DNA of 36,736 bases from positions 3,606 to 40,341 of the forward strand of contig CAZGVH010000001.1 of the NCBI GenBank assembly GCA_964528955.1, given 5' to 3'. Shown here in pieces: positions 10-33,200 of this stretch. Source of the stretch: an uncultured Dehalococcoidales bacterium. GTDB lineage: Bacteria; Chloroflexota; Dehalococcoidia; Dehalococcoidales; UBA5627. The notes beneath the pieces are model-generated. The model saw only the letters and a program-made list of their open reading frames with translations, searched no databases and was not told the origin of the DNA. Made by a program: the position numbers and the translations under genes. The stretch's first letter is position 1. Each line of letters starts with the position of its first letter.

Positions 10-1398
10 CTAGAACTTGGGAACTTGCGGCAGATGAGCTAAGGCTTCCTTGACCATTTCAGCCGGGTAGTCGTAATCCTCCAGCTTATTGGCAAGGTAA
101 GCATCGTAGGCGGCAAGGTCGAAGTGCCCATGTCCGCTATGCGCCAGCAGGATGGTTTTGGCTTCGCCTGTCTCTTTGCACTTCAAGGCTTCGTCTATAG
201 TAACCCTGATGGCGTGGTTGGTTTCCGGCGCGCTGATAATACCCTCGGTGCGGGCGAACTGGACGCCGGCAGCAAAGGTTGCCAGCTGCGGAACCGCTTT
301 GGCTTCGACAAATCCCAGCTTGTGCAGATGACAGATAATCGGCGCCATGCCGTGATAGCGCAATCCGCCGGCATGAATCGATGAAGGAATAAAGGTATGC
401 CCCAGCGTGTACATCATCACGATGGGAGCCAGTCCCGCCACATCGCCGTAATCCCAGGCATAGACACCCTTGGTGATGGTAGGGCAGCTGGTCGGTTCGA
501 CATTGATGATGCGCAGGTCTTTTTTCTTGCCCTGAATCTTGTCTACCACGAATGGCAGGTACATTCCGGCAAAATTGGAGCCGCCGCCGACACAGCCGAC
601 AATGATGTCGGGATAGGCATCCGCCTGCTCCGTGATCACCTTCTTCGTCTCCAGTCCGATAACCGTCTGGTGCAGCAGCACGTGGTTGACGACGCTGCCG
701 ATGGAGTACTTGGTATCGTCATGGGCGAAGGCGTCTTCGCAGGCTTCGCTGATAGCGATACCGAGGCTGCCGGGGTGATCCGGCAATTCAGCCAGCAGCT
801 TTCTGCCGATTGCGGTATCGGGGCTGGGGCTGGGAACGCATTTGGCTCCCCAGGTCTCCATCAGGATGCGGCGGTAGGGTTTCTGGTTATAGCTGACGCG
901 CACCATATAGACCTTTACTTCGAGTCCGAACAAAGCCCCCGCCATCGACAGTGCGCTGCCCCATTGACCGGCGCCGGTTTCCGTTGCCAGCCGTTTGAAT
1001 CCCTCTTTTTTGGCATAATAGGCCTGTGCTACCGCGGTATTCGGTTTATGGCTGCCGGCAGGGCTGGTACCCTCGTATTTGAAGAATATTTTAGCCGGAG
1101 TGTCCAGCGCTTTCTCAAGTCTGCGCGCCCGGTGCAATTCCGTCGGTCTCCACATTTTGTAAATCGCCTGTACCTCATCGGGTATTTCTATCCAGCGTTC
1201 CTTGCTGAACTCCTGCTTGTTGATGGCATCGGGGAAGAGGGGAGGAGGCAGCGGCATATCCAGCGGGCAGGGCTGCTTGGTTACAGGATGCACCAGCGGC
1301 GGCAGCGGTTCCGGCAGGTCGGGTAGGATGTTATACCAGTGGGTCGGCATGTCCTTCTGGTCGAGTATGTACATGGATTTCTCTTCTGAAATCTTCAT
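10..1398 (-). CDS. trpB: TrpB2-type tryptophan synthase beta-like PLP enzyme
   Basis: 462-aa ORF. PLP-lysine motif [11 protein letters not shown] and phosphate loop [11 protein letters not shown]. Long N-terminal extension typical of TrpB2 rather than TrpB1. AAGGAG lies 8 nt upstream of the ATG. Preceded by a Trp-specifier T-box leader. Confidence 0.9.
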
Positions 1399-1509: not shown

Positions 1510-1542
1510 AAAAAAACCTCCCGCCCTTAAAGGGGCAGGAGG
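1510..1542 (-). terminator. Intrinsic terminator of the T-box leader
   Basis: Minus strand reads CCTCCTGCCCC-TTTAA-GGGCGGGAGG followed by TTTTTTT (10-bp GC-rich stem with one G-U pair, then U7). The 5' arm overlaps the region that can pair with the T-box sequence as an antiterminator. Confidence 0.85.
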
Positions 1543-1812
1543 TTACTTCCGCGGTACCACCCTTCTTAACCGAACCGTTCGATTCGGTCATCTCTGCCAG
1601 GATACGGATTCACTTGTATAACCCGATATCCAAGGATATGCTAACACTTCCTGTGCGGCAAAACCTAGTCGGTTTTAGAGGGGAACCTTTCGGTTCGCAG
1701 CTCCCGGGTCCATTCAATCTGACCGCCGGTACCGGTTCACACCTTCCCCGGCTCTCTGAAACCTGCGTGTGGGATTTATTAGTCCCGTTCATAGCCTTTT
1801 TATATTCGATTG
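1510..1812 (-). promoter_or_regulatory. T-box leader RNA, tRNA-Trp specific (UGG specifier)
   Basis: Minus strand carries the canonical T-box sequence AGGGTGGTACCGCGG (1563..1549) directly 5' of the terminator. Stem-I elements are AGAGAG (1757..1752) and GGTGTGAA (1743..1736). A specifier-loop-like GAA-UGG-A has UGG at 1712..1710. The downstream gene is trpB-like, consistent with a Trp codon. Confidence 0.85.
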
Positions 1813-9010: not shown

Positions 9011-9820
9011 TCAGGATAATGCTATATCTTCTAAACTAACATCCTTCTCGGTGCTGATATCAGCTATAGTTTTTGATTTACCGCCGGCTTCTATTTTTAA
9101 CGAGAAAGTGCCCACAGCTAAACCCTCGAACCAGAAATCTCCGAAGTTATCAGTAGTGGCAGTAGCATTGCCGGCGCCAGAAAGAGTACAGGTTGCACCG
9201 ACGACAACTTCCTGTTTTGCCGGGTCGAATACTGTTCCCGCAATAAACCTCTTTGGGAGATTCAAATAATAAGTTCTCGGTTTGGTGCCAAATTCAGGAT
9301 TCATTACCTCAGCTTTAGCTATCTCGGCGCTAAATGCAGACTCGTCACCGAATCGCAAAGCTCCGTTATGGCAAGAATCGACGCATCTGGGTTCCGTAAT
9401 CGGCCATCCTCTGTCCCTGAGATGTGCGCAACTTGTGCATTTCTGTGCCAGTTTAAGGTTCTGATTCCAGTAAATAACATCATAAGGGCAGGCGTCTATA
9501 CATAACTGATGGCCGGCGCATTTCTGGGGGTCTATGATCACCATAGCGTCATCCCTCTTAGTAATAGCGCCCTCAGGGCAGGCTGTTATGCATGGAGCCT
9601 CGTCACAATGATGGCAGCGGCTCGGTACGTAGGCTACCTTGATATGAGGTATTTTCCCGCGTACGATTTCATTTTGCTTGTTCCAGAACTGCCCTGTTTC
9701 CGGTTGTGGTTTGGCGTAGGGCATCCAGTCATTACCGCAGTGTTCGTCCTTGCAAACAAGCTGGCAGGTATAGCATCCTATGCATTCTGCCGCATCATAA
9801 ACATAAACTTTCTTCGCCAT
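9011..9820 (-). CDS. Four-cluster Fe-S subunit of the DMSO-reductase-family enzyme (transhydroxylase BthL-like), copy A
   Basis: 269 aa. Cys groups are CIGCYTCQLVC, CHHCDEAPCITAC, CAGHQLCIDAC (His replaces the 2nd Cys) and CTSC...CVDSC. A C-terminal ~80-aa beta-sandwich-like domain (GTVFD...FGDFWFEGLAVGTFSLKIEAGG). The ATG overlaps the alpha stop (TAATG). Confidence 0.85.
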   Translation of the reverse strand: MAKKVYVYDAAECIGCYTCQLVCKDEHCGNDWMPYAKPQPETGQFWNKQNEIVRGKIPHIKVAYVPSRCHHCDEAPCITACPEGAITKRDDAMVIIDPQKCAGHQLCIDACPYDVIYWNQNLKLAQKCTSCAHLRDRGWPITEPRCVDSCHNGALRFGDESAFSAEIAKAEVMNPEFGTKPRTYYLNLPKRFIAGTVFDPAKQEVVVGATCTLSGAGNATATTDNFGDFWFEGLAVGTFSLKIEAGGKSKTIADISTEKDVSLEDIALS

Positions 9821-12663
9821 TATTTTCCTCCTTCTACCCAGCCCTTAAATAGCGGGCCATACTGAGGGTCGTAATCTCGTAAAAAGGCTTCTGGGAATTC
9901 ATTACGCCATTGATCCATCATTTCACCAGTTACTTTCTCGATCTCAGCCAGGTAATATTGACAAGCTAAACCGTAACCATGTTTGTGCATCGGCGGCATC
10001 ACATTGATACTGTTGGGGTTGCCGCCTCTGTTGATGTCCGGGCTAATCTGGTCGTCTCCTCCTGCTTTATCCATACGTACAGCTTGCTGCATTACTTTTT
10101 CAGTTACCATAGCACCGGCAAGAACGCTGCCTCTTTCGTTGTAGATTCTAACTATATCACCATTTTTTATCCCTCTGGCTGCAGCATCTACCGGATTAAT
10201 CCAGACCGGGGAATAGGCATACCCGTCAAAACCGATGATATATGGTCTGGCTTCCCTCGTCCAGGGGACATCAACGTACTGTGAGTGATGCAGCCAGTCG
10301 TTGGTCTGTGATACCACTCTGATAGGATAGGTCTTGGCTCTTTCTCCCCAGGGATCTTCATCATGAGTCCAACCTTCAGAAGCAGGGCCGCCGGGCACAT
10401 ACGTTGCAGTGGGTGCTCTTTCCTTATCGTCTGGGAACCAACCCATCAATGTCTGTGATTCGTATTCCATTTTACCGGATGGCGTGCTTAACGGATTTTT
10501 AGCTGGGTCTTCGTAGAATTTAAACGATGCGGGTGTACTTTCCACAGTCTTCGGGTCTCTGTCTACGGCATAATAGCCTTTTTCGTTTAAATCCTCCCAG
10601 CTGATTTTGTCTTTGATTGCCCCGCCATCATAAGCCGCCCTGGTTTGCGCCTCACTCCAATCTTTATAGTTGGTATAGCCGGGGATTATTTTATCGAGCA
10701 TTCCCAGCTTCTCGGCGACCAATAATGTCGCTTCCATGTCACTCTTGGCTTCTCCCTTCGGTAGAGATGCCACTTTGTTTATGTAAGTGATGCCGCATAC
10801 ATCGCCGCCGGTCTTCGGATCTAATAATTCATGCAGTGTAGCAATCGGCAATATTATATCCGAATATTTCATGCAGTCTTCCAACCACATGTTCATGGTT
10901 ATATGGCATTCCAGCTTCGGACTCTGGAAACCCTTACGCGTGTAGTTACCATAGGCGCGGCTACCTGTATAGCTTTGGCTGGTAGCCCAACACAAATGTA
11001 TTTCAGAAAATCCCGGTTCAGGATAGACACGTTTGGTGCCCTGGTCACTGGTAGGCCACCATTCGACAGGCGGGTTCAATAAGCAGTCAGCCCAGTCGTC
11101 TCTGGGCATAAACGGTTTGTCAAGGTCGGTAGCGCTGTACCTGACACCGGTTGCCGTTGAAAAGGCGGTTGTAATTACTGAATTACCTGCTACGCTGGCA
11201 AATCCTCCGGCGCTTCCTGAAGGCAAACTACCCGTTATTGAAGAAATCTGGTGAACGCCGGGTTTTCCGTATCCCTGCATTCCCAGCAGATAGAGCTGCA
11301 TTCTGTTTACGTTATCACCATAGATAGTTCTGCCGTTAGCACCGCCGCCTTTAACACCGAACAAAATCGATGTCGGTTTGGATGCCCATTCACGCGCCAG
11401 AGCTTTGATGGTATATTCAGGGATTAGGGTTATTTTTGAAGCCCAGGCAGGTGTCTTGGCAATCTTGTCCGAGGCAGTCCCTTTAACATATGCCTCCCAC
11501 TTATCAAAACCATAGGCATGGGTTGCTATATAGTCTTTATCATAGGTGTCTTCGTCGAACCAGACATAAGCGATAGCAGCCGCAAGAGCAGCATCCGTAT
11601 TAGGAACTATAGGTATGAATTTATTACAATGGATGCCTACCGTTTTATTTACTTCGGGACCGATGCTTACTACAGGTATCCCCACTTTTTTGTTCATCCA
11701 GTGTAAAGCTATAGGAGCAATCAATCCGCTATACCATGAGTGCGTTTCATTGCATGCCCAGCCGACCAGCATTTCGCAGTTGTTGGCATTGTCATGAAAC
11801 ACACCGCCGCTGGCTTCATAGTCATCTCCGATAACATATCTTCCGCCCAATTGTCCGCCTGAAGAGGTGGTAGCACGCCCGGAAGCGCTGGTAATATAGC
11901 CCTGATATTTGTCATAAGCATAATACTGCAACAAGCCTTCTTGACAACCGTGGCTACCGGGTAGACTGTGTCCTTCGGAATGGCCTCCGCTGTAGGTGGC
12001 GGTGAGAGCAGAGGGGCCATATTTGTCTCCTACTCTCTTAATTTCATTGGCTATTATAGTTGCAGCTTCGTCCCATGAAATTCTCTTGTATTTACTCTTA
12101 CCACGGTTCTGCGCATTGATTTTAGCCGGGTCGCCGCCGGGTTCCCAGTCAACTCTCTGTAAAGGATACAGAACTCTGTTGGGGGAATCGGTGCGTTTTC
12201 TACGGCATATGGTCTGAACACCGATCATGGATTTCAACATCGGGGTCCATGATTTACCGCGTGCCGTATATGTCCAGCCCTTGAGATCCGGATATTCTTT
12301 ATTGTAATGTATCGGCCTGATTCTTATTATTTTGCCATTCTTGACATCGGCATGTCCCGGGCAGTTGATAGCATTAAAAAATACTTCTTCCGGTTCAAGA
12401 GCTGGCGCAGTGGTTCCACCGCCGCCACCAGCTGTGATGGTCTTGGTAACTGTTTCACCGCCACCGCTAACTACAGTTTTTGTAACGACATTAGTTGTAG
12501 TTACAGTGGATGTTTTACCGCCACCGGTAGCCGAAAGTATTCCGGAACCGACAACACCGCCCACGATTACTGAACCGGTGCCAACCAGAAAATCTCTTCT
12601 GTTTATTACTACTTCTCCGGATTGGCTCTTGTCTTCTTTGTTAAGATCTTTTTCTTCTTTCAA
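9820..12663 (-). CDS. TAT-exported molybdopterin catalytic subunit, pyrogallol-phloroglucinol transhydroxylase (AthL)/resorcinol hydroxylase-like, copy A
   Basis: 947 aa. Twin-arginine motif NRRDFLVG. No N-terminal CxxCxxxC FS0 motif. Collinear blocks recalled from Pelobacter acidigallici AthL (YKRISWDEAATIIANEIKRVGDKYGPSA; IAYVWFDEDTYDKDYIATHAYGFDKWEAYV; GIKNGDIVRIYNERGSV). TTG start 7 nt after GGAG. Confidence 0.8.
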   Translation of the reverse strand: MKEEKDLNKEDKSQSGEVVINRRDFLVGTGSVIVGGVVGSGILSATGGGKTSTVTTTNVVTKTVVSGGGETVTKTITAGGGGGTTAPALEPEEVFFNAINCPGHADVKNGKIIRIRPIHYNKEYPDLKGWTYTARGKSWTPMLKSMIGVQTICRRKRTDSPNRVLYPLQRVDWEPGGDPAKINAQNRGKSKYKRISWDEAATIIANEIKRVGDKYGPSALTATYSGGHSEGHSLPGSHGCQEGLLQYYAYDKYQGYITSASGRATTSSGGQLGGRYVIGDDYEASGGVFHDNANNCEMLVGWACNETHSWYSGLIAPIALHWMNKKVGIPVVSIGPEVNKTVGIHCNKFIPIVPNTDAALAAAIAYVWFDEDTYDKDYIATHAYGFDKWEAYVKGTASDKIAKTPAWASKITLIPEYTIKALAREWASKPTSILFGVKGGGANGRTIYGDNVNRMQLYLLGMQGYGKPGVHQISSITGSLPSGSAGGFASVAGNSVITTAFSTATGVRYSATDLDKPFMPRDDWADCLLNPPVEWWPTSDQGTKRVYPEPGFSEIHLCWATSQSYTGSRAYGNYTRKGFQSPKLECHITMNMWLEDCMKYSDIILPIATLHELLDPKTGGDVCGITYINKVASLPKGEAKSDMEATLLVAEKLGMLDKIIPGYTNYKDWSEAQTRAAYDGGAIKDKISWEDLNEKGYYAVDRDPKTVESTPASFKFYEDPAKNPLSTPSGKMEYESQTLMGWFPDDKERAPTATYVPGGPASEGWTHDEDPWGERAKTYPIRVVSQTNDWLHHSQYVDVPWTREARPYIIGFDGYAYSPVWINPVDAAARGIKNGDIVRIYNERGSVLAGAMVTEKVMQQAVRMDKAGGDDQISPDINRGGNPNSINVMPPMHKHGYGLACQYYLAEIEKVTGEMMDQWRNEFPEAFLRDYDPQYGPLFKGWVEGGK

Positions 12664-12806
12664 TTTATTCTCCTTTCATTTAATTCCACCACAGGATATA
12701 AATAATCCGAATAGGCAATCACCTCCTTTTTTTAGTTGTACTTCAAACACCATTCACAAAACATCATTAACTGAAAAAAATCACTATTTAATTATGGTTT
12801 TATATA

Positions 12807-13595
12807 TTAATGTTCCACCGGATAATCTTTGAATGAAGCCTTTGTTGCCCCGCAAACAGGGCATCTCCAGTCGTCAGGGATATCTTCAAATGCAGTGCCG
12901 GCAGGTATACCTCCATCCGGGTCTCCTATTTTAGGGTCGTATACATAACCACAATCGGGGGTTTGGCAATAATATGCCGTCATACTGGATGATGAACCGG
13001 TAGTTGTTATGATGGTAGTAGTAAACGACAGTGCTTTGTTGTAATCCTGTTGAGAAAGGTATTGCGGCTGGTAACTTATTCCTTTATCACTTAACGCATT
13101 AACAAATATTCGCAGGTGATTATTGGAACCTTCTACCAGTTTATTAAAGGCTGTATCGATATTATCTTTATCGGTCTGTTCCAGGTATTTTTTAATATCG
13201 ACGATGTCGATTTCTTCCACCATGGCAGCTATTTCCAATGCCTTAGCCTCAGTTGAGGCGCTTTGTCCTTTAAGTTCGTTGTACAGCGCTTGCAGATCAC
13301 TATTATTGAATTTACCATAATCGTTATTTTCAGCTGGATTATCGATACCATAGGCATCAATGAGTTCTTTCACTATGTTCATATGAGCCTGTTCGCTGTT
13401 ACTGATAGTATCAAGGACATATGTGCCCCATTTATCAAACGAATATCTGTAAACATCCCGGGCTAATTTTTCCACTTCATAGATGTAGTTAAGTCCTTCC
13501 TTTTCTACATCCTTCAATTTTGACGAGCAGGCTGATATCGCGGCCGTTGAGAGTAAAGCAAGCGCCAAAGCTACATAATTTTTACCTTCAGCCAT
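12807..13595 (-). CDS. Lipoprotein fusion of a DUF2202 (ferritin-like) domain and a C-terminal rubredoxin
   Basis: The longest ORF runs to 13640, but GGGAGG lies 9 nt upstream of the ATG at 13595. Lipobox ...[12 protein letters not shown]2202-like [18 protein letters not shown]...SEQAHMNIV. Thr/Ser linker [13 protein letters not shown]. Rubredoxin knuckles [12 protein letters not shown] and [10 protein letters not shown]. Confidence 0.7.
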
Positions 13596-13651
13596 AGTTT
13601 GTATCCTCCCGTTAATAAATTTTTTAAAATAATACGGCACTTACCGATTCT

Positions 13652-14032
13652 TTAAGTTTTTATTAATTCATCTCTCAGTACGCATTTTAATTTAGCGATA
13701 AATAGCTGTTTATTAAACGGAGCTTTAATAAAATCATTGGCGCCAATGTCGAAAGCTTTTACCAATTTCCGGATATCGTTATCACTCGATATAAAAACTA
13801 TTGGTATATCATAATCATCACGTATATATCGTATCAGCTCGAATCCGGGCATATCAGTTAGTTGCTTGCCTGTTATGACAAGGCTAATATCCGGATTATT
13901 TTTTAAATTATCTAAACAGGCTTTACCCAAACAAGTAATAGACCTGTGCCACTCTGGTTGATATTTTGATAAAACATCACTTACTTCTTTTACAACTTCA
14001 TTATCAGCGTCGGCTATAATTATTTTTAACAA
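13652..14032 (-). CDS. Stand-alone receiver-fold protein lacking the phospho-acceptor Asp (pseudo-receiver), copy A
   Basis: 126 aa with CheY-like topology. The beta3 end reads SLVITG-KQLTDMPGFEL, so Gly55 (codon 13870..13868) occupies the Asp position. Lys is retained in DFIKAPF. Confidence 0.75.
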   Translation of the reverse strand: MLKIIIADADNEVVKEVSDVLSKYQPEWHRSITCLGKACLDNLKNNPDISLVITGKQLTDMPGFELIRYIRDDYDIPIVFISSDNDIRKLVKAFDIGANDFIKAPFNKQLFIAKLKCVLRDELIKT

Positions 14033-14194
14033 AGCATCCTCAATATAAATAAGGCTTTATTTAACTTTTTGCATTTAATTGTTGCCAATGCTTACGCTTG
14101 TTTTACCAGTGACAGTCTCAATTGTTAAGGATACTGCTTAATAAAAGACAGGAATTTTTGAGGGTGAGATTAATTCTTGTTACAATTACTAATT

Positions 14195-14226
14195 GTAGAA
14201 TATCGGAGTTAAATAGCGGTTAATAA
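14195..14226 (-). promoter_or_regulatory. Conserved intergenic element upstream of the receiver/molybdoenzyme operon (copy A)
   Basis: Plus strand GTAGAATATCGGAGTTAAATAGCGGTTAATAA closely matches GTAAAGTATCGGAATTAAAATAGACGTTAAAAAA at 32320..32353, in the equivalent intergenic region of copy B. Confidence 0.4.
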
Positions 14227-14239
14227 TCGATTTGATAAA

Positions 14240-14277
14240 GTAAATAAAAGTAAATATTCAGTAATAATTTGTTAAAT
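14240..14277 (-). promoter_or_regulatory. Four direct heptamer repeats at 10-11-bp spacing (candidate OmpR-family regulator site)
   Basis: Plus strand has GTAAATA (14240), GTAAATA (14250), GTAATAA (14261) and GTTAAAT (14271). The helical-turn phasing is typical of winged-helix response-regulator boxes. Confidence 0.35.
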
Positions 14278-14348
14278 TTATACAGCGCTAGGCTATAAAG
14301 ATACCTGGGTTTTTATTTTAAGCAATATAAGCATATGGGGGATAATTT

Positions 14349-15035
14349 CTAACTCAGCGGTTTGATAGCGTAGTATCCTAATCCTGATTTCGAAAAGATA
14401 ATTTGTGGATTTTCCGGATCGATTTCAATTTTTTTACGCAGGTGATTTATGTGCACTTTTAGGCTGTTGATAGCGCCTTCATAATAATCGCCCCAGACTA
14501 TTTCACTTAAAGTATTTAACGGTACTATATTTGGCGAGTTGTTAATCAGTGCGCGCAGAATTTCGTTTTCTGTTCCTGTTAAGTTAATTGTTACATTGTT
14601 TCTGTTAATCTCGCGGCGGTCATAATCATATATTAACGAACCCCAAAACAACTTGTCTTCTCCACTGGCACGCTTGTAAAACTTCAGTAAATTTTTTACT
14701 CTTGCTATGAGCTCCATTTGACGGAATGGTTTTGTAACATAGTCATTGGCACCGAGTTCCAGCGCCTGTACTACCATTGTCTCACTGACATCAGCTGTTA
14801 GTATTAATATAGGTATTTGTGAAAACAGGCGGATTTGCTTGACTACGTCGAGCCCATCTATATCCGGAAGACCTATATCGAGAATAACGATATCAGGGGC
14901 TTGAGTTTCCACCAATTCGACCCCTTCTTTACCCCACCCCGAAGATATTATTTCAATATCAGGCCATACCGTTATAAAAGTATAACCGACGGACTTGACG
15001 ATTTTGCTATCATCTTCAATAATCAGTATTTTCAT
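14349..15035 (-). CDS. OmpR/PhoB-family response regulator, copy A
   Basis: 228 aa. Canonical receiver (ILIIEDD, VILDIGLPDIDG, ILTA, TKPF) plus a winged-helix C-terminal domain. The start overlaps the HK stop by 4 nt. Confidence 0.9.
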   Translation of the reverse strand: MKILIIEDDSKIVKSVGYTFITVWPDIEIISSGWGKEGVELVETQAPDIVILDIGLPDIDGLDVVKQIRLFSQIPILILTADVSETMVVQALELGANDYVTKPFRQMELIARVKNLLKFYKRASGEDKLFWGSLIYDYDRREINRNNVTINLTGTENEILRALINNSPNIVPLNTLSEIVWGDYYEGAINSLKVHINHLRKKIEIDPENPQIIFSKSGLGYYAIKPLS

Positions 15036-18000
15036 TTATCTCCCGGTTTAAGTGGCAAAGAAAATCCAAAAAGACTACCCCTACCTTTATTGTTATTATG
15101 TCCCCATATTATACCGCCATGGAGTTCAACAATCATCTTGGATAGGTAAAGCCCGATTCCGAGTCCTCTATTTGAGTAAGAGGTCGTATTATAAAGTTGG
15201 AAGAGATTCTTTTCTATCTCCGGATTTATACCCAACCCGTTATCTTCTATCTCGATTGTAATATTATCTGTGTTATTAATTACCCGTAAAATTATCAGGC
15301 CGCCTTTTTGAGTAAATTTGGATGCGTTATTTAACAGGTTTAACAGAACTTCACTGATGCGTTGTTCATCAACAGGTATAAGAGGTAAAGTATCGGGAAT
15401 ATCAATAATAAATTTTTGTTGTTTTTCACTGAATATATATGTTGAATACTTGGTTATGTCTATAATTATCTGATGAATATCAGAAAATCTAAGGTCCAGC
15501 TTTAACATTCCAAGTTCTCCGCGTGCTATATCATGTAATTGGTCGATTCTATTATTCAACGCATGTGAACCGTCTAGTATCGTGTTTGCCATATCGATAA
15601 TCATTTTATCTTTTGTTTTTTCTTCCAATACATCTTTTAAGACTTCGCTGGTATTTATCATGGAAGTAAGAGGTGTTTTCAGTTCATGTATTAAAGCACG
15701 AGTATATCCAACGCGGCGGTTTAATTCATTTTTCAGTTCATCTGATTTATCAATTAATTCCTGCGTTCTCGCATTGACCTGAGACTCCAATTCGATGGAA
15801 TATTTTTCAACCTTATGGATTCTTTGGTAAATAGTTAATAAAATAATGGCTATCGCTACAGCAACACAGGATAAAGCGAACCACCACTCCTTCCAGAACG
15901 GAGGAGAGATGATTATTTTCAGTGAAGTCCATTCTTCGTTTAAAAAGTTATCAATGTTTCTGGCTCTAACCTTGAATTGATACTCTCCGCTATTTACATT
16001 TGTATACCTGGCAAAGCTCTCATTGGGGCCGCAGTATTGCCAATCGGTATCGAATCCCTCCAGAATATAAGCATATTTATTATCACGCTGTGAGGTATAG
16101 TCCAAAGCAACAAAATCGATTATAAAAGAGTTATTGCTGTAAGGTAGCTTGATCTCCTTTACTTCCTCAATGGGTTTATCGAATGATATCGATTCATTGT
16201 TAATTAAAGAAAAACCATTGATTAATACGGGAGGTTTAAATGTACTTACAGGTATGGTGTTTGAGTCGAATGAAAAAAGACCATTAGACGTGCCGATAAA
16301 TATCAAACCATCTTTGTCTGTAGAGATGGAGTTGGAATAAAAAGCGCTACTGCGCAAACCATGGTCGTTCCCATATACAATGACATCCTTCGATTCGACA
16401 GATAGTTTAACAATCGAGTAGTCTATCATCAACCAGATATTACCATAGTTATCTCCTAAAACACCTGTAATACGGTTGCCCGGCAATCCATCTTTTTCTG
16501 TGTATAAATAGAAATCACTATTTCTTGAATCATATTTTACCAGCCCTTCGTTTGTCCCTATCCAGAGTACCTTGTTCACGTCCTCATAGATGCAAATAAT
16601 TTCATAGTTTAAAAAATCTTTTTCTACTTGATCTTGAGTATAGTGAATAAATCCTCCGTTTTCTTTATCCAATCTGTCCAGACCTTTGTCAGTACCGAAT
16701 AACAAATCTCCGTCTTTTATTTTATATATTATATTTACAATGTTGCTGGCTATACTTGACTGATTGTTCAGGTCAAAGTAATATCGATTAAATTTATTTT
16801 CTTGATAATTAAAACTGCAAAGTCCGTTTACCGTACCAATCCATAATAAATCCTGTTCGGCATCATAACAGAGTGAGGAAATCCAGTTGTCTGGTAAACT
16901 ATTCGGATTATCTTCTTCATAGGAATAATTTTCATATTTACCCGTTTGCGCATCTATCCTGATTAATCCGAGGTATTTTGTTCCCACCCATATAGAACCG
17001 CTATCATCCACACAAATGCTGTTTGTAGCACCATTTACTATTCCTTTGTTCATCGAGCTGTAGCTGAAATTGCGTTGTATTAAGTCTTTTTCATAGTCGA
17101 ACCATATAATACTGGTAGGTGTTCCGAGCACCATCATATTAATATCACTATAGATGCACCTTACACCGATATTATTAACGGAATCATAATAGTTAAAGCA
17201 TTGTAGATCAGGGTTAATATAGTGAACGCCCATTCTTGTCCCAAACCATAAAATACCCTGCTCGTCTTCGTAGATTGTTCTGATTATATTATTTTTGATA
17301 CTCTCAGGATTATTAGGGTCATACATATATCTGGTAAAAATTCCAGTTTCTCTGTCCAGAGTGTTCAAGCCGTTGTTTGTGCCTATCCACAGCTTGCCAT
17401 TACTGTCTTCATAAACAGTCCATATCTGATTATCACTTAAACTGGCGGGATTATCGGGGTCGTGAACGTATCTGTTAATAATCCCAGTCTCTCTATCAAA
17501 GGTATTTAAACCGTCTTCGGTACAAATCCATAACACTCCATGGCTATCTTCGTAGATGTACCATATAACATTACTGCTTATACTACCCGGATTGTCGGGT
17601 TCATAAATATATTTGGTCAAAGTCGCGGTTTTTCTATCGAAGGCTTTTAAGCCGCAATTTGTTCCTATCCACAATATTTTGTCATTGTCTTCATAAATAG
17701 CCCTGACAATACAGCTACTGGAATTAGTATTATCATCGGTATATCTGGTAAAAATCCCAGTTTCTCTATCCAGGCTGTTTAAACCATTATCTGTACCTAT
17801 CCACAATATTCCAGATTCATCTTCGTAGATATCCCAGATAATATTACTGTTGATGCTCTCGGGATTATTAGGATTATAGGTATATCCTGTAAAATTACCC
17901 GTACTGCCATCAGATTTAAATAAACCTGCCTCGGTGCCTACCCATAATACTTGCCGGCTGTCTTCGTAAATGGACCATATTACTTCATTCTCAAAGCCTG

Positions 18001-18271
18001 CTATCGATTTGCATCCAATGCTATCGTATTTATATAGTCCGCCTCGTCCGCCAATCCACATATAACCATAGTGATCTTTAAATATTGAATACACCTGGTT
18101 ATTAGATACAAATTCGTTAACATCCAGTTTGCTAAATACTATGTCAACATCACTGGATGCTGATTGTGCTTTTAATCCCATATCAGGCATCATTATCAAA
18201 CAATAAGCTAAAATAAAGATAAAAAATATCAGTCTACCAATGTTCATAATGCCTCTGAAATTATTAGTCAT
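15032..18271 (-). CDS. Sensor histidine kinase with a large extracytoplasmic beta-propeller/Y_Y_Y domain, copy A
   Basis: 1079 aa. N-terminal TM, then about 750 aa of repeated blades (...IWxIYEDxxGxLWIGTxxGLN...), a Y_Y_Y-like region (YAYILEGFDTDWQY...YQFKVRA) and a second TM. H-box HELKTPL, N-box LLNNASKFT, G-boxes DNGLGI and GLGIGL. Confidence 0.9.
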   Translation of the reverse strand: MTNNFRGIMNIGRLIFFIFILAYCLIMMPDMGLKAQSASSDVDIVFSKLDVNEFVSNNQVYSIFKDHYGYMWIGGRGGLYKYDSIGCKSIAGFENEVIWSIYEDSRQVLWVGTEAGLFKSDGSTGNFTGYTYNPNNPESINSNIIWDIYEDESGILWIGTDNGLNSLDRETGIFTRYTDDNTNSSSCIVRAIYEDNDKILWIGTNCGLKAFDRKTATLTKYIYEPDNPGSISSNVIWYIYEDSHGVLWICTEDGLNTFDRETGIINRYVHDPDNPASLSDNQIWTVYEDSNGKLWIGTNNGLNTLDRETGIFTRYMYDPNNPESIKNNIIRTIYEDEQGILWFGTRMGVHYINPDLQCFNYYDSVNNIGVRCIYSDINMMVLGTPTSIIWFDYEKDLIQRNFSYSSMNKGIVNGATNSICVDDSGSIWVGTKYLGLIRIDAQTGKYENYSYEEDNPNSLPDNWISSLCYDAEQDLLWIGTVNGLCSFNYQENKFNRYYFDLNNQSSIASNIVNIIYKIKDGDLLFGTDKGLDRLDKENGGFIHYTQDQVEKDFLNYEIICIYEDVNKVLWIGTNEGLVKYDSRNSDFYLYTEKDGLPGNRITGVLGDNYGNIWLMIDYSIVKLSVESKDVIVYGNDHGLRSSAFYSNSISTDKDGLIFIGTSNGLFSFDSNTIPVSTFKPPVLINGFSLINNESISFDKPIEEVKEIKLPYSNNSFIIDFVALDYTSQRDNKYAYILEGFDTDWQYCGPNESFARYTNVNSGEYQFKVRARNIDNFLNEEWTSLKIIISPPFWKEWWFALSCVAVAIAIILLTIYQRIHKVEKYSIELESQVNARTQELIDKSDELKNELNRRVGYTRALIHELKTPLTSMINTSEVLKDVLEEKTKDKMIIDMANTILDGSHALNNRIDQLHDIARGELGMLKLDLRFSDIHQIIIDITKYSTYIFSEKQQKFIIDIPDTLPLIPVDEQRISEVLLNLLNNASKFTQKGGLIILRVINNTDNITIEIEDNGLGINPEIEKNLFQLYNTTSYSNRGLGIGLYLSKMIVELHGGIIWGHNNNKGRGSLFGFSLPLKPGDK

Positions 18272-28073: not shown

Positions 28074-28886
28074 CTAAGCCAGTGCGATATCTCCCAGATT
28101 GACGTCTTTTTCAGTATTGATATCGCTGATTGTTTTACTCTTGCCGGCAGCATCAATCTTTACACTGTAGCTGCCTACTGCTATGCCTTCGAACCAGAAA
28201 TCACCGAAGTCGTCGGTTGTGGCTGTCGCAGACCCGTCTCCTGAAAGGGTAACGGTACCACCGATAATAACTTCCTTCGTAGCCGGGTCGTATACTGTAC
28301 CGGCAATAAATCTCTTGGGCATATTCAGATAATACATCCTCGGTTTAGTATTGTATTCAGGATGCAAAACCTCTCCGGCAGCAATCTTGCTGCTGAAATC
28401 TGCCTCTTCGCCAAATTGGAGGGCATAATGATAACATGCATCAACACATCTGGGCTCTTTAATAGGCCAGCCTCTATCCAGAAGATGAGCACAGCCGGTA
28501 CATTTTTGAGCAATGTTCAAGTTATCATTAAAGTAGATATTGCTATAGGGGCAGTTATCTATACATAACTTACAACCCGTGCACAGTTTGGGATCTATCC
28601 ATACTATTCCGTCATTACGACGAACTATTGCATCTACCGGGCAATTCTCCAAACAGGGTGCATCTTCACAGTTATTACACTTAACAGGATAGCAATATAC
28701 TTTTACCTTGGGTGAGTTACCGACAGTACCGCGAACATTTTCATTCACCTTGATCCAGAACTGCCCTATCTCAGGCTGTGGCTTGGCATATGGCGTCCAG
28801 TCATTTCCGCAATGCTCATCCTTGCAGGCAATCTGGCACATACGGCATCCAATACATAATCCAACATCATGAACAAAAACTTTCAC
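28074..28886 (-). CDS. Four-cluster Fe-S subunit (BthL-like), copy B
   Basis: 270 aa. All four Cys groups are intact (CIGCRMCQIAC, CNNCEDAPCLENC, CTGCKLCIDNC, CTGC...CVDAC). Same C-terminal beta-sandwich-like domain. The GTG start overlaps the alpha stop (TAGTG). Confidence 0.85.
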   Translation of the reverse strand: MKVFVHDVGLCIGCRMCQIACKDEHCGNDWTPYAKPQPEIGQFWIKVNENVRGTVGNSPKVKVYCYPVKCNNCEDAPCLENCPVDAIVRRNDGIVWIDPKLCTGCKLCIDNCPYSNIYFNDNLNIAQKCTGCAHLLDRGWPIKEPRCVDACYHYALQFGEEADFSSKIAAGEVLHPEYNTKPRMYYLNMPKRFIAGTVYDPATKEVIIGGTVTLSGDGSATATTDDFGDFWFEGIAVGSYSVKIDAAGKSKTISDINTEKDVNLGDIALA

Positions 28887-31813
28887 TATTCTCCTCCTTC
28901 CTCTAACCAGGCTTCGAGTCTTCTACCTGCAGCCGGGTCGTATGCCCTCTTAAAGGCATCAGGGTAATCTCTCCTCCACTCGTCCATCATCTCGCCAGTG
29001 ACTTTTTCAATCTCTACAAGGTAACCGGTAACATATAATCCCATAGCGTTAGGAGAAATGCCGTTGGGACAGATAGTGTTGTTCTCACCGCCCCTGTCAA
29101 GTACACCTGGAATGATGTAATCTGTCTGGGCGCCGTGTTCCATTGCAACTACACCTTGCATAGTTCTCTCCCAGACTTTAGCCGCACCGAGTATAGCACC
29201 ACGGTCATTGAATATCTTAATAATGTCGCCGTCCTTGATACCTCTTGCCTCGGCATCAGCCGGGTTCATCTGTACTGGCTCATACCAGTATCCATCCCAG
29301 CCTTCTATCTTGGACAATTCTCTGAGCCAGGGGATATCGTCATGCTGAGAGTGATAGCGCCATTTCGGAGTGTTGGAAATCATCTGCAGAGGATAAGTCT
29401 GAGCTTTCTTGCCGGTACGGTATTCATCATAGAAATACCCTTCACCACCGGGAATCCAATGTGCCAGCGGAGGCCTGTCTTTATCATCGGGGAAGTTTTC
29501 AGCTAATCCGGTACTCCAGAACTCAAGAAGACCGGTTGGCGTTGCCAGAGGATTCTTTACCGGGTCATCATAGAATTTCTGGGAAGCCGGTGTCCTCTTA
29601 GCTGCATCTGGATGTAATCCTATTATATAATAGCCCCTTTCGTTCAATTCTTCCCAGGTTACTACATCGGTCATACCGCTTGTATCGTAAGCTTCTTTAA
29701 CCCACTCGTCAATAGTTTTTCCGCCGGTCCATTTATCGTAAAAGTCCAGTTTTTTAGCCAGTTCACCGACTATTTCATAATCGGACATGGATTCTCCGAT
29801 ACTCTTAATAGCCGGCTTTTCCAGACACCATACACCGTAATCCTCACTTGAAGTATTCATGTCGTATTCTTCAAGTTTAGTATTAACCGGCAAGACGATG
29901 TCGGAATAAAAGCAGGTGTCCTGCCACCACTGGTGTTGAGTTACCACGCATTCTAGAATATCCTCTTGATGAGCCCTGAATCTGTTGTTGCCATCATCAG
30001 TACTCTCAGTGTTGCTGGCGCCTTCCCACCACATGAATCTCACAGGAGACTTGTCCTGCCATGGGTATTCGAACTGCTGGAACTGGCGAGTCCTGTTGCC
30101 ACGGGTACCGCCGCCATACCAGGTTACCTTGGGATCACCCTCTCTCCAGGCAAAGCACCTTGAGATATCGGGGGAATGCATTAACGGTCTTTCTTCCACC
30201 TTAGGTATTGATAATCCTTCGGCCTTCATCAGCTCCGGGAAACGTCCTGACATGACTCCTTCTTTAGCCATCGGGCTTACCTTGTCATAAGAAGGGGACT
30301 TGGCAAAACTAGGTGTTCTAAGCGGGTTGGTGCACTGGTGTACACCAGGTTTACCCCATCCCTGCATACCCAGCAGATACCATTCCATTCTCATGGCTTC
30401 AGTTGAATATCCGCCGCGGCAGAGGCCGCCGCCGTGAGTCTGGGCAAATGATGCTCTACTATGTTTACCCCAGTATCTTGCCAGGGCTTTAATGGTCCAC
30501 TCAGGGGTTCCGCAAATTGAGGCAGCCCATGCGGGGGTTTTAGGAATACCATCCTCATCACCCATAACATAAGCCTGCCATTTATCAAAACCATGTACAT
30601 GTGTGGCTACATACTCTTTATCATAGGTATCTTCGGTAATCCAGATATAAGCTATTGCCAGCATCATACATGGATCGGAGTTCGGATAAATAGTTATCCA
30701 TTTATCTGCCCAGTAACCGGTGCCTGTATTACAATCAGGGCTGATAAATATACATGGAATACCAAGCTTTTTAACCCAGTAAGTACTGTAACCTCTTCTC
30801 ATTCCATCATTTTTACACCAGGCTTTGGTTACATTATCGCATCCCCAGTAAAGCATAAGCTCGCAGTTGGCAGAGATGTCTCCCCAAAAATTAGCATCCG
30901 ACTCTTCACCGAACATTTCAATTGCATTAACATGCTTGGCACCCCAGGCTGTTCCTTCCCAGCTATATGGGCTACGCATGGCTTCTGTATAATGTTGGCC
31001 GTATGTAGCTTGTGACCAGTAATGCAGGAATGCGCTGGTAGTATAATGATAGCCATGAATAGTCTTCAATTCACCATGAGCCGGGCAGAATGTACAAAGA
31101 GCTGCCGGACCGTATTTATCAGCAATTCTCTTCATTTCACCGGATACTATTGTTGTAGCTTCCTCCCATGAAATCCTCTTATACTTGCTGATACCGCGAT
31201 TTTGGGCATTTCTTTTTGCCGGATCACCACCGGGTTCCCAGTCAACTCTCTTTAACGGATATAATATCCTGCGGGGTGAGTAGGTACGTCTCTTATATCC
31301 GGCACCCAGCGGCGCCAAACATGATTTTTTGTGTGAGGTCCATGTCTGTCCGCGGGCTTCCCATGTCCATGGCTGGAAATTGGGGTCCTCATCAAAATGA
31401 ATTGGCCTGACTCTGACTATTTTGCCGTTTTTAACATCTACACATGCAGGCGACTCTAGGGCTTTAATAACTGTCTCTTCCGGCTCTAATGCCGGTTCGA
31501 TTGAACCACCGCCGCCACCTGTCGTTACTGTTTTGGTCTCGGTAACTGTAACCGCACCAGTTCCACCTACTGTTTTAGTCTCGGTTACCGTAGCACCTGA
31601 ACCGCCAACAGTTGTTGTAACTGTTTTTTCAACTGTTTTTGTAGTTTCAACGGTTTTAGTGGTTTCTCCTCCGCCGCAACCGGATAATAGTCCAGCCCCA
31701 ATAGCACCACCGACAACTACCGTTCCGGCACCTACAAGAAAATCTCTTCTTGAGACTTCACCGGATTGTTTCTTTTCTTCTCTCACTGATGTTTTTTCTT
31801 CTTCGTTTTTCAA
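28886..31813 (-). CDS. TAT-exported lipoprotein molybdopterin catalytic subunit, transhydroxylase (AthL)-like, copy B
   Basis: 975 aa. SRRDFLVG twin-arginine motif. Lipobox LLSGC (Cys46, codon 31678..31676). About 65-aa T/V/G/E/K linker. No FS0 Cys motif. YSWEGTAWG matches the segment I recall as carrying the Mo-ligand Ser175 in P. acidigallici AthL (DSWEGWHWG). TTG start after GGAG. Confidence 0.8.
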   Translation of the reverse strand: MKNEEEKTSVREEKKQSGEVSRRDFLVGAGTVVVGGAIGAGLLSGCGGGETTKTVETTKTVEKTVTTTVGGSGATVTETKTVGGTGAVTVTETKTVTTGGGGGSIEPALEPEETVIKALESPACVDVKNGKIVRVRPIHFDEDPNFQPWTWEARGQTWTSHKKSCLAPLGAGYKRRTYSPRRILYPLKRVDWEPGGDPAKRNAQNRGISKYKRISWEEATTIVSGEMKRIADKYGPAALCTFCPAHGELKTIHGYHYTTSAFLHYWSQATYGQHYTEAMRSPYSWEGTAWGAKHVNAIEMFGEESDANFWGDISANCELMLYWGCDNVTKAWCKNDGMRRGYSTYWVKKLGIPCIFISPDCNTGTGYWADKWITIYPNSDPCMMLAIAYIWITEDTYDKEYVATHVHGFDKWQAYVMGDEDGIPKTPAWAASICGTPEWTIKALARYWGKHSRASFAQTHGGGLCRGGYSTEAMRMEWYLLGMQGWGKPGVHQCTNPLRTPSFAKSPSYDKVSPMAKEGVMSGRFPELMKAEGLSIPKVEERPLMHSPDISRCFAWREGDPKVTWYGGGTRGNRTRQFQQFEYPWQDKSPVRFMWWEGASNTESTDDGNNRFRAHQEDILECVVTQHQWWQDTCFYSDIVLPVNTKLEEYDMNTSSEDYGVWCLEKPAIKSIGESMSDYEIVGELAKKLDFYDKWTGGKTIDEWVKEAYDTSGMTDVVTWEELNERGYYIIGLHPDAAKRTPASQKFYDDPVKNPLATPTGLLEFWSTGLAENFPDDKDRPPLAHWIPGGEGYFYDEYRTGKKAQTYPLQMISNTPKWRYHSQHDDIPWLRELSKIEGWDGYWYEPVQMNPADAEARGIKDGDIIKIFNDRGAILGAAKVWERTMQGVVAMEHGAQTDYIIPGVLDRGGENNTICPNGISPNAMGLYVTGYLVEIEKVTGEMMDEWRRDYPDAFKRAYDPAAGRRLEAWLEEGGE

Positions 31814-31890
31814 TTATTTCTCCTTTCATAGATTCTCGTTAAGATGCAATAAAATTCTGTATAGACATCACCCCCTTTTTAAATAAACTA

Positions 31891-32277
31891 TTAATTAGCT
31901 TTTGAATCCCAGGTTCTTCTTCTTACTATCGCATTCAATTTGGCTGCAAATATATTTGCATTGAATGGAACAGTGAAATAATCGTTAGCTCCATTGTCGA
32001 AGGCTTTAATCAACATGTTTATATCTTCATCTTCTGAAACGAGGATAATTGGCAAATCGGAATCGTCTCGTATATTCATAAGCAAGTCCAATCCACACAT
32101 ATCTGACAGATTAAATCCTAATATTAATGCGTCCGGACAATTACCGTTTTTTAATACTTTCAGGCACTGCTTTCCGGAGCCGATTACAGATAACTGACAG
32201 TCAGGGAGATATTGATTTATAGCTATTCGTATATTATCCGCAACTTCTATGTTTTTCTCTGCAATAACAATATTCAT
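31891..32277 (-). CDS. Stand-alone receiver-fold protein lacking the phospho-acceptor Asp (pseudo-receiver), copy B
   Basis: 128 aa. The beta3 end reads ALILG-FNLSDMCGLDLL, so Gly54 (codon 32118..32116) occupies the Asp position. The acidic pocket is degenerate (IAEKN). The conserved Lys is replaced (DYFTVPF). Confidence 0.75.
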   Translation of the reverse strand: MNIVIAEKNIEVADNIRIAINQYLPDCQLSVIGSGKQCLKVLKNGNCPDALILGFNLSDMCGLDLLMNIRDDSDLPIILVSEDEDINMLIKAFDNGANDYFTVPFNANIFAAKLNAIVRRRTWDSKAN

Positions 32278-32319
32278 TTACTTATTAAATTAAAATCAGT
32301 GATTTCCTTATATAGTATG

Positions 32320-32353
32320 GTAAAGTATCGGAATTAAAATAGACGTTAAAAAA
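32320..32353 (-). promoter_or_regulatory. Conserved intergenic element upstream of the receiver/molybdoenzyme operon (copy B)
   Basis: Counterpart of 14195..14226 (see that feature). It lies 43-76 nt upstream of the receiver ATG. Confidence 0.4.
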
Positions 32354-32519
32354 AAAGTGGATTGTTAAAATTTATTAATAAATGAATGAAAAATTAGAAA
32401 TGCGTTAATAAATACGTAAATATGATAGCGAATATCAATAATTCTCTAAAGAGGTAGTAATTTTTCTGGTTAAAATGGCTAAAATATGTAATTACAAAAA
32501 CATTATAAGACGGGGCCAA

Positions 32520-33200
32520 TTAATCGGATTTTAATATGTATCCGACACCTGCCTTTGTGTGAATAAAAACAGGGTTCCGCGGATCCTTTTCAATTTTATT
32601 GCGTAAGCGGTGAATATATACCCTAATCGATTCGCAGGTACTGGGATCGTTATAATCCCAAACTGCTTCAGCCAGGTTGGAGATTGGAATTACCTTCTCT
32701 ACATTTCTTAAGAGCTGGTACATTATAATACCTTCAGTTTGTGTAAGGTTAATTTTCTTTTTATCCACGAAAAGTACTTTTAAATCAGGTTTTAGCATTA
32801 GAGATTTATATTGGATCGCATTTCCACCACCGGGAATGTGTTGCCTTCTTAATATAGCATTCATTCTCGATATAAGCTCAAGTTGTCTGAAAGGTTTGAT
32901 GATATAATCATCCGCACCGGATTCTAATCCCATGATAATGTCACTTTCTTTGTCACGGGCAGTTAAAATTATTACCGATACCATAGAGAACAGTCTGATT
33001 TTTTTAAGTACGTCAAAGCCATCCATATCAGGCAATCCAATATCCAGTATGACAATATCCGGATTTTCATCAGCTATGATTGACAAGCCTTTTTCACCTT
33101 TATCGGTAGATAAAATAACAGCATCAGGCCAACGTATCCGGAGAGCAAGCGAAACAATGGATACGATATCAGCATTATCTTCAATAACAACTATTTTCAT
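32520..33200 (-). CDS. OmpR/PhoB-family response regulator, copy B
   Basis: 226 aa. IVVIEDN, VILDIGLPDMDG, ILTA, IKPF. Winged-helix C-terminus (VYIHRLRNKIE...GVGYIL). Confidence 0.9.
   Translation of the reverse strand: MKIVVIEDNADIVSIVSLALRIRWPDAVILSTDKGEKGLSIIADENPDIVILDIGLPDMDGFDVLKKIRLFSMVSVIILTARDKESDIIMGLESGADDYIIKPFRQLELISRMNAILRRQHIPGGGNAIQYKSLMLKPDLKVLFVDKKKINLTQTEGIIMYQLLRNVEKVIPISNLAEAVWDYNDPSTCESIRVYIHRLRNKIEKDPRNPVFIHTKAGVGYILKSD

Follow-up and report, generated by a model that had tools for sequence, protein, structure and literature searches.

Receiver domains that Pfam recognizes as such but that lack the phospho-acceptor aspartate and other active-site residues are known as aspartate-less receivers or pseudo-receivers (PMC4395418, PMC12632262), and several percent of receiver domains are of this kind. 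According to a 2025 review (PMC12632262), little is known of how they work, and nearly all studied examples are orphans that carry DNA-binding domains; among the 20 atypical regulators covered by that review, CmrT and FrzS are the only non-orphans. Glycine accounts for 11% of the substitutions at the acceptor position and is the only common type without a characterized or solved representative (Maule et al. 2015, PMC4395418). Here, we describe a family of pseudo-receivers of this type based on two genes, copies A and B, in a 36,736-nucleotide (nt) stretch of the genome of an uncultured Dehalococcoidales bacterium (contig CAZGVH010000001.1 of assembly GCA_964528955.1, positions 3,606 to 40,341; hereafter, the window), and we refer to this family as sRec. 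The sRec proteins fall under the published definitions of the class and also show its reported trends, such as the absence of Pro at D+4 and of Ala/Gly at T+1 (PMC4395418, PMC12632262). Compared with the known pseudo-receivers, sRec is distinct in being of the Gly type, in having no output domain, and in not being an orphan. We found no literature account of these Dehalococcoidales cassettes, and sRec is a new family within the known class of aspartate-less pseudo-receivers.

Among the described systems, CmrT of the Clostridioides difficile CmrRST system resembles sRec in being an OmpR-lineage pseudo-receiver whose gene accompanies those of a kinase and a canonical regulator of the OmpR type, and heterodimers of CmrT with the canonical regulator have been seen in pull-downs (PMC12548384). 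CmrT, however, has Glu at the acceptor position, keeps its DNA-binding domain and is a transcription factor itself (PMC12548384), whereas sRec has Gly and no DNA-binding domain, and its gene accompanies the target operon, not the regulator genes. The BldM-WhiI pair of Streptomyces provides another example of an atypical receiver protein, in this case one that acts only by heterodimerization with another response regulator (PMC12632262, PMC12548384), but both of its partners have DNA-binding domains and are encoded apart, while sRec would add no DNA contact. In terms of structure, the receivers of KdpE, PhoB, VicR and MtrA share with sRec the fold, the residues of the alpha4-beta5-alpha5 interface and the Ser/Thr and Tyr switch residues; unlike these receivers, sRec has no acceptor Asp, no conserved Lys, no second acid and no winged-helix domain, and the counterparts of E86 and E109 of the neighboring regulators are hydrophobic. 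sRec represents a clean natural case, that is, a receiver fold without output domain that is found between a complete kinase-regulator pair and a presumed target operon, occurs in as many as 17 copies in a 1.9-Mb genome, and has one conserved surface, which is the known dimer face of regulators.

Copy A (13652..14032, minus strand) encodes a protein of 126 amino acids and copy B (31891..32277, minus strand) one of 128; a first-pass annotation, made from the sequence alone, had given both genes at the right forward-strand positions, although both stretches are open on the minus strand only. The start codon of copy A is TTG, with GAGGA 5-6 nt upstream, and the ribosome-binding site of copy B is weak. 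The two proteins share 42% identity, and the sole Pfam match of each is Response_reg (PF00072), at 51.5 bits for copy A and 55.4 bits for copy B (cut-off, 30.2 bits), covering profile positions 1-110 and 1-106, respectively, of 111, i.e., essentially the full length of the domain. The same Pfam scan showed no Trans_reg_C winged helix in sRec, the proteins of which stop 5-40 residues past alpha5, and copies A and B matched neither PF02613 (TorD/DmsD/NarJ) nor PF03927 (NapD). The AlphaFold model of copy B (pLDDT, 91.9) has the five strands and five helices of the receiver fold, and its best structural matches in Foldseek are receivers of the OmpR/PhoB type, namely VicR, MicA, KdpE, MtrA and PmrA (query-normalized TM-scores of 0.79-0.87 and root-mean-square deviations of 1.4-2.2).

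The first-pass annotation had proposed that the phospho-acceptor is Gly in both copies unless a receiver profile were to place a real Asp, such as Asp60 of copy A, in that column. Five lines of evidence agree on Gly55 in copy A and/or Gly54 in copy B. Specifically, MAFFT alignment with the two neighboring OmpR-type regulators places VITG/LILG opposite VILD, and hence Gly in the acceptor column; phmmer against solved receivers places 'vitgkqltdmpg' opposite 'vildlglpdqdg'; MAFFT alignment with CheY and PhoB also puts Gly at the acceptor; the gapless BLASTP alignment to KdpE places G54 of copy B on D52 of KdpE; and in the AlphaFold model G54 is the last residue of strand beta3. Asp60 of copy A is found at D+5, where it corresponds to the conserved Asp of the LPD(M/I)DG motif, and is thus not the acceptor. 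The rest of the catalytic site is degraded as well. The acidic pocket reads D8-A9 in copy A and E7-K8-N9 in copy B, so that neither has the acid pair that binds Mg2+ (the placement of the acid loop differed in one MAFFT run, and this assignment rests on the other alignments), and the column of the conserved Lys is occupied by Ala104 in copy A, with a Lys displaced one position back (FIKAPF vs. YVTKPF), and by Val103 in copy B. That is, the loss of pocket and Lys that had been noted for copy B holds true, whereas their retention in copy A, which the first-pass annotation had implied, does not. The neighboring OmpR-type regulators (14349..15035 and 32520..33200, both on the minus strand), in contrast, are fully canonical, as had been annotated, with E/D-D, D, T and K all present and with both Response_reg and Trans_reg_C domains.

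These substitutions are characteristic of the family rather than of the two copies. Among 34 copies, the acceptor is Gly in 29, Asp in three and Ser in two, and the Gly residues are encoded by all four codons (GGA 9, GGC 8, GGG 6, GGT 6); a Gly this common, with this codon turnover, is not due to chance and is thus itself under selection. Further, the columns that carry the phosphorylation chemistry are unconstrained: based on 15 non-orthologous cassettes, column entropy is 3.19 for the Lys (the maximum of the protein), 2.52 for the second acid, 2.42 for D+2 and 2.20 for D+4, while all four columns are invariant in the cognate regulators, with Asp as the second acid there. The Lys column being the most variable one of the protein argues that phosphorylation chemistry has been abandoned. 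On the other hand, the switch residues are kept, with Ser81 (the Ser/Thr at the end of beta4) being invariant and position 100 (K-3) being Tyr, as in copy B, or Phe. Collectively, these data identify copies A and B as stand-alone receiver-fold proteins of the OmpR/PhoB lineage that are predicted to be incapable of phosphotransfer. We consider their identity as non-phosphorylatable pseudo-receivers to be nearly certain, phosphorylation being excluded as far as the sequence allows.

The metagenome-assembled genome (MAG) that includes the window (1.32 Mb, 73.5% complete) has seven sRec copies. A word-based homologue search returned four proteins, and the family becomes visible only by profile search and genome scans: the scan of species-representative genomes identified 25 loci, 24 of them from six Dehalococcoidales MAGs and one on a short contig labelled Sedimentisphaerales, below which scores fall to those of ordinary regulators, and an exhaustive profile search recovered small proteins that form about 40 clusters at an identity of 50%. 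Based on whole-genome searches, sRec is present in seven of the 12 genomes of the source GTDB genus, with 1-17 copies each, and, outside the genus, in a single genome, which belongs to a different family of the order Dehalococcoidales. At the threshold applied, the remaining five genomes of the genus were without a match; a divergent copy of the Ser type is nevertheless present in G309, one of these five. We did not find sRec in 29 other sampled families of the order or in 300 other genomes of the class, the best matches in the latter being full-length regulators with at most 102 bits vs. 171-215 bits for family members. The family bears on the control of a large set of paralogous, surface-exposed molybdoenzymes in uncultured, non-dehalogenating Dehalococcoidales.

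In the phylogenetic tree, a single branch splits 35 sRec sequences from 23 cassette regulators (SH-aLRT support of 91 and 89), so the family is old and has not been re-created each time from the neighboring regulator. Nested within the family (SH-aLRT support of 95) is a clade with one copy in each of five genomes that is linked to polA (C105:1227-1640, minus strand, on another contig of the source MAG, and around position 8001 of loci L008, L010, L022 and L025). Housekeeping genes (argF-like, der, plsY) surround these copies, and neither a kinase nor a regulator nor a molybdoenzyme is encoded nearby. The acceptor is Asp in two of the five members of this clade, in which the acid pair is still missing. 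We considered whether the Asp-bearing copies could represent ancestral forms and rejected this idea, since two of the three Asp copies belong to the polA-linked clade, nested within Gly-bearing members; this position, together with Asp codons that are one step from GGY, suggests secondary changes. Finally, at three loci a second pseudo-receiver, likewise stand-alone but more divergent, lies between regulator and sRec in a tandem arrangement (L003:7559-7927, L017:7547-7900 and L023:6788-7171, with Ser, Gly and Gly, respectively, at the acceptor), and these second copies branch at the base of the family.

The first-pass annotation had reasoned that retention through an old duplication argues for function. 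The data agree and extend this view, with at least 34 intact copies, many duplications rather than one, and a Gly that is maintained through synonymous codon turnover. The ratio of non-synonymous to synonymous substitution rates (dN/dS) of every close pair is 0.11-0.33 for sRec vs. 0.01-0.08 for the adjacent regulator, and identity between orthologous cassettes is 57-62% for sRec, 78-79% for the kinase, 88-89% for the regulator, 92% for the molybdenum (Mo) subunit and 94-96% for the Fe-S subunit. Hence, sRec is a real gene under purifying selection, yet the fastest-evolving one of the cassette. The latter fact, with dN/dS values reaching 0.33, would also be expected if sRec were a nearly neutral passenger, i.e., a truncated duplicate of a regulator with little function that hitch-hikes with the duplications of the cassette, and such a scenario could also account for the random catalytic columns, the absence of the family from several congeners and the weak ribosome-binding site of copy B. 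We regard this scenario as improbable, however, because reading frames are intact in nearly all of the 40-odd copies (one match in G327 holds a TGA), dN/dS is well under 1 in every pair, Gly is held with all four codons, sRec is one old clade separate from the regulators, and the proteins keep a coherent conserved surface as well as several family-specific residues. The latter include the invariant Cys38, located in the first turn of alpha2, which aligns with the buried Ala42 of CheY and with a Gly of the regulators; a redox-sensing role for this residue was considered and set aside, and the other cysteine, Cys47, shows no conservation. Also kept are the loop from alpha3 to beta4, which reads IRDDSDxP, and RRRxWD past alpha5, beyond which the proteins end in a variable tail rich in Lys (5-40 residues).

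The columns of lowest entropy (0.35 or less) are V90, F93, D99, A112, A116, R119 and R120, and column 113 is mostly K or R (entropy of 1.53). V90, F93, D99, A112, K/R113, A116, R119 and R120 align without gaps to I88, L91, D97, A110, R111, V114, R117 and R118 of KdpE, which are residues of the hydrophobic patch and the salt bridges of the alpha4-beta5-alpha5 receiver dimer of the OmpR/PhoB family (PMC4773095). In other words, by alignment the dimer-interface residues of OmpR/PhoB receivers constitute the most conserved surface of the family, and this face is identical across all paralogues, including the polA-linked clade. It differs from that of the cassette regulators at E86 and E109, which are invariant in the latter and hydrophobic in sRec; the counterpart of KdpE E107 is hydrophobic in some OmpR/PhoB members as well (PMC4773095), and position 109 of sRec is likewise. 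A phosphorylation-independent, protein-binding role, as had been suggested by the first-pass annotation, fits well with a protein in which the catalytic columns are unconstrained and the alpha4-beta5-alpha5 face is the most conserved part.

We tentatively favor, while recognizing that it may well turn out otherwise, the hypothesis that sRec is a phosphorylation-independent modulator of two-component output that works by dimerization. Under this hypothesis, sRec would be made together with the enzyme from a promoter activated by the phosphorylated regulator, and it would dimerize constitutively via alpha4-beta5-alpha5, either with itself or with the receiver of the OmpR-type regulator, through a face that selection has kept, made more hydrophobic. 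A regulator-sRec heterodimer would place only one DNA-binding domain on a tandem-repeat site; since sRec has no DNA-binding domain, it would thus tune or limit the output of the two-component system. Negative feedback would be the likeliest form of such control, and positive stabilization of the active conformation of the regulator could also be envisioned. CmrR-CmrT and BldM-WhiI provide precedents for heterodimers between receivers and pseudo-receivers (PMC12548384, PMC12632262). Further, the conserved face being common to all paralogues makes cross-talk between cassettes conceivable. The parts of the cassette are small soluble proteins, or can be reduced to a soluble portion in the case of the kinase, that can be made in E. 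coli, and thus, the question of how a dead receiver acts on a live system is directly testable.

With few exceptions, sRec directly precedes the operon of an AthL-like molybdoenzyme exported via the twin-arginine pathway, in most cases adjoining the genes for a propeller kinase and an OmpR-type regulator. The recurrent order is kinase, OmpR-type regulator, sRec, Mo subunit, Fe-S subunit and small membrane protein, and this order, or a divergent form of it, was observed for both copies in the window, for C2 (divergent) and C143 of the same MAG, and for most of the 25 loci of its relatives. In the source MAG, all six non-orphan copies show this order, counting two that are cut by the contig end (C31 and C111) but carry the conserved leader (below) and the first codons of the Mo subunit. 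Where the kinase-regulator pair is divergent (C2, L016), sRec remains on the strand of the enzyme. Every assessable cassette with a kinase-regulator pair has an sRec, including the divergent Ser-type one of G309, which is found in the same slot. In the window, the kinases (15032..18271 next to copy A and 33229..36504 next to copy B, both on the minus strand) have Reg_prop propeller repeats, Y_Y_Y, HisKA and HATPase_c domains; no receiver domain was found in kinase A, and kinase B has the same architecture. The Mo subunits (9820..12663 and 28886..31813, minus strand) are represented by an AthL-like molybdopterin oxidoreductase with a twin-arginine signal in cassette A and by a gene that starts 77 nt past sRec in cassette B. 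In the former cassette only, a gene for a DUF2202-rubredoxin fusion (12807..13640, minus strand) lies between sRec and the Mo subunit. Also, the number of sRec copies tracks that of Mo subunits across the genus (7 vs. about 6, 17 vs. about 18, 5 vs. 4, 5 vs. 4 and 1 vs. 1, with three genomes having neither), the 17 copies and about 18 Mo subunits being those of G308, the 1.9-Mb MAG of locus L008. As a side observation, genomes of this single genus contain anywhere from 0 to about 18 cassettes, an expansion that is reminiscent of the reductive-dehalogenase families of Dehalococcoides.

Sequences upstream of sRec provide a candidate site for the regulator. The intergenic region between regulator A and sRec A (14033..14348, minus strand) is a putative OmpR-type regulator site and promoter, with a perfect tandem direct repeat of TATTTACTTT (two units, period of 10, 10/10 matches; 14237..14256, minus strand; p = 0.01 vs. 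shuffled sequences). Cassette-specific direct repeats with a period of 10-12 nt are also found upstream of sRec in other cassettes, such as the TTTTCACA-N3-TTTTCACA repeat of the C111 group, which is kept across six orthologous loci. The combined p value for such repeats in the 12 two-component-linked cassettes is 0.0017 (Fisher's method), and the lowest repeat scores are those of the two cassettes without a two-component system. Direct repeats with a period of 10-12 nt are of the type used by OmpR-type regulators. Both sRec upstream regions of the window also share the block ATTT(A/T)A(C/T)TCCGATA(T/C)T(C/T)TAC, which may represent the core promoter, about 35-60 nt from the start codon in copy B and about 150 nt in copy A. 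The spacer between sRec and the Mo subunit measures 77-217 nt and consists of a poorly conserved part followed by a highly conserved leader. We found no consistent terminators or hairpins in the spacers compared, which makes it likely that sRec is co-transcribed with the enzyme. The placement of sRec as the first gene of the operon, as originally annotated, is in agreement with this picture, given that it is the first open reading frame past the repeat-bearing intergenic region, is encoded on the strand of the enzyme, and is followed by no intervening terminator.

It is important to note that several observations weigh against the dimerization hypothesis. First, the intergenic region upstream of copy B (32278..32519, minus strand), which is AT-rich, contains no direct repeat above chance. 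Second, L006 and L015 keep sRec and the enzyme without a kinase-regulator pair within 8 kb; in L006, a Crp/Fnr-family gene (cNMP_binding and HTH_Crp_2 domains; L006:5870-6559) replaces the pair, and L015 has no visible regulator. Third, the polA-linked clade has no kinase, regulator or enzyme nearby. Fourth, sRec evolves 5-15 times faster than the regulator proposed to be its partner. Fifth, cognate sRec-regulator pairs are not clearly more alike over beta5-alpha5 than non-cognate ones (BLOSUM p = 0.016, uncorrected for 14 tests); that is, when cognate and non-cognate pairs are compared for each structural element, the signals of beta1 and beta5-alpha5 (p of about 0.02) do not survive 14 tests. 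Lastly, distance-matrix comparisons (mirror-tree and Mantel tests) of sRec against the dimerization/histidine phosphotransfer (DHp) and catalytic/ATP-binding (CA) regions of the kinase, the regulator, and the alpha and beta subunits of the enzyme do not single out the regulator as the partner: kinase, regulator and enzyme co-vary strongly (r = 0.7-0.9), while the correlation of sRec is weak and about equal with all partners (0.49-0.62 with orthologous pairs included and about 0-0.3 without them).

Some of these observations would also be expected if sRec were an adaptor to a partner outside the cassette, for instance, RNA polymerase, a protease or another shared component, in which case its conserved face would contact this shared partner and its variable surfaces would be unimportant. 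CpdR and RssB are examples of receiver-type protease adaptors. A shared partner could account for a conserved face that is identical in all paralogues, the polA-linked clade included, for the lack of congruence of sRec with any single cassette partner in the distance-matrix tests, and for the persistence of sRec without a two-component system in L006 and L015. Yet no particular partner is indicated by the data, such a role would not account for the tight physical linkage of sRec to the enzyme operon and to the two-component system, and the family is unmatched in five of the 11 other members of the genus searched (with G309, one of the non-matching genomes, having the divergent copy). Hence, we think that such an adaptor role is unlikely.

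A different partner within the cassette, the kinase, was also considered. According to this alternative, which corresponds to the anti-kinase role listed in the first-pass annotation, sRec would dock on the DHp region of the propeller kinase, take no phosphate, and hinder the transfer of phosphate to the regulator or the phosphatase reaction. The receiver fold and the location of the gene beside that of the kinase fit with such a decoy, binding competitors of this kind have been hypothesized for pseudo-receivers integrated in two-component systems (PMC12632262), and alpha1, the kinase-docking helix, varies between paralogues as specificity residues do, being the most variable helix of sRec (entropy of 2.31 vs. 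2.02 in the regulators). However, the identity of sRec alpha1 to that of the cognate regulator is 0.195 vs. 0.175 for non-cognate regulators (permutation p = 0.24, 15 independent cassettes), and pairwise similarity in sRec alpha1 does not follow similarity in the DHp region of the kinase (r = 0.17; partial r = -0.13), in contrast to the alpha1 of the regulator (r = 0.56). Moreover, variability peaks at the Lys column of the beta5-alpha5 loop, which belongs to the region that contacts the kinase, and sRec persists in cassettes without a kinase and beside polA. Because alpha1 neither resembles that of the cognate regulator nor tracks the kinase DHp, the decoy is the less likely form of interaction with the two-component system, and we judge its probability to be low; the originally listed anti-kinase role thus finds no support in these comparisons.

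Alternatively, sRec might work on the side of the enzyme. NapD and TorD/DmsD/NarJ are small cytoplasmic proteins encoded beside, and one per, molybdoenzymes exported by the twin-arginine translocation (Tat) pathway, and sRec is placed alike, with napD before napA being a positional precedent. As such a factor, sRec would be a cassette-specific cytoplasmic partner of the enzyme precursor that keeps hold of the twin-arginine signal or of the apo-enzyme pending cofactor insertion. In line with this scenario, each enzyme has one sRec gene directly 5' of its Mo subunit and in the same orientation, sRec remains next to the enzyme even where the two-component system is divergent or absent, and it follows the copy number of the Mo subunit, as described above. 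In addition, we found no PF02613 gene in the source MAG or in four of five relatives (G001-G005), and no PF03927 gene above the cut-off in the source MAG or the four relatives searched, although missing chaperone genes represent weak evidence because the source MAG is just 73.5% complete. Several findings argue against this scenario. G313, a 98% complete genome, carries no sRec at all, yet two of its operons encode such enzymes, with the same N-terminal signal region and without a two-component system, and the polA-linked clade represents the opposite case of sRec without an enzyme. The surface that is conserved corresponds to the classical dimer face of receivers, the N-terminus of the enzyme is 86% conserved between orthologues vs. 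57-62% for sRec, NapD and TorD have a fold and family unrelated to sRec, and we know of no receiver-fold Tat chaperone. Hence, a factor of this kind appears doubtful at best, an obligatory role of sRec in enzyme maturation is disfavored on these grounds, and the assembly or targeting role considered in the first-pass annotation is weakened accordingly by the operons and the clade just mentioned. Overall, the genomic data narrow the alternative functions that the latter had put forward without settling them. Independently of sRec, it is worth mentioning that genomes mostly devoid of the known chaperone families still hold many molybdoenzymes with Tat signals.

A bolder, and in our opinion rather unlikely, possibility is that sRec couples either the state of the enzyme to signaling or the cassettes to each other. 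In the former case, sRec, with its receiver fold, would serve the precursor of the Tat-exported molybdoenzyme as a cassette-specific partner, replacing the missing TorD/NapD-type chaperones and reporting maturation to the two-component system. In the latter, given the dimer face that all paralogues have in common, the sRec of an induced cassette would heterodimerize with OmpR-type regulators from as many as 17 other cassettes and, if true, the resulting lateral inhibition would produce a hierarchy of substrates over a family of respiratory or catabolic operons.

The leader in front of the enzyme gene is about 62-70 nt long and directly precedes the start codon of every Mo subunit assessed (both copies in the window, L001-L024, C2, C31, C111 and C143), with a consensus of GGAGGTGATGCCTATWCARCA, an AT-rich stretch and AATCTATGAAAGGAGAA, followed by the start codon. 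In cassette B, the leader (31814..31875, minus strand) reads GGGGGTGATGTCTAT ... AATCTATGAAAGGAGAAATAA and separates sRec from the enzyme gene, and cassette A has the same leader (12664..12726, minus strand) with a 1-nt insertion (GGAGGTGATTGCCTAT...). Within the source genome, the leader shows specificity for Mo-subunit genes, with five of the seven matches located there, and the search pattern misses copy A because of its insertion. In L003, the leader is found twice, before an inserted lipoprotein gene and before the Mo subunit. The first block of the leader is almost perfectly complementary to the 3' tail of the 16S rRNA, and at most loci a tiny frame comes next, MPIQ(H/Q)F(I/V)I(T/A)*, which shows synonymous changes; at other loci this frame is truncated (MPI*, MSI*) or, in copy A, broken. 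We also considered a riboswitch or attenuator between sRec and the enzyme and rejected it, since no Rfam family was matched at threshold, the leader lacks a conserved secondary structure (-2.2 kcal/mol, no covariation), and the spacers have no consistent hairpins.

Finally, two additional observations concern the window as a whole. Its G+C content, computed in 2-kb bins, is 43-48% over the genes for the Mo and Fe-S subunits vs. 33-37% over those for the kinase, regulator and sRec. Away from the cassettes, a T-box leader (Rfam RF00230, 99.6 bits) is located at 1528..1801 on the minus strand, upstream of an open reading frame of 462 amino acids (10..1398, minus strand).

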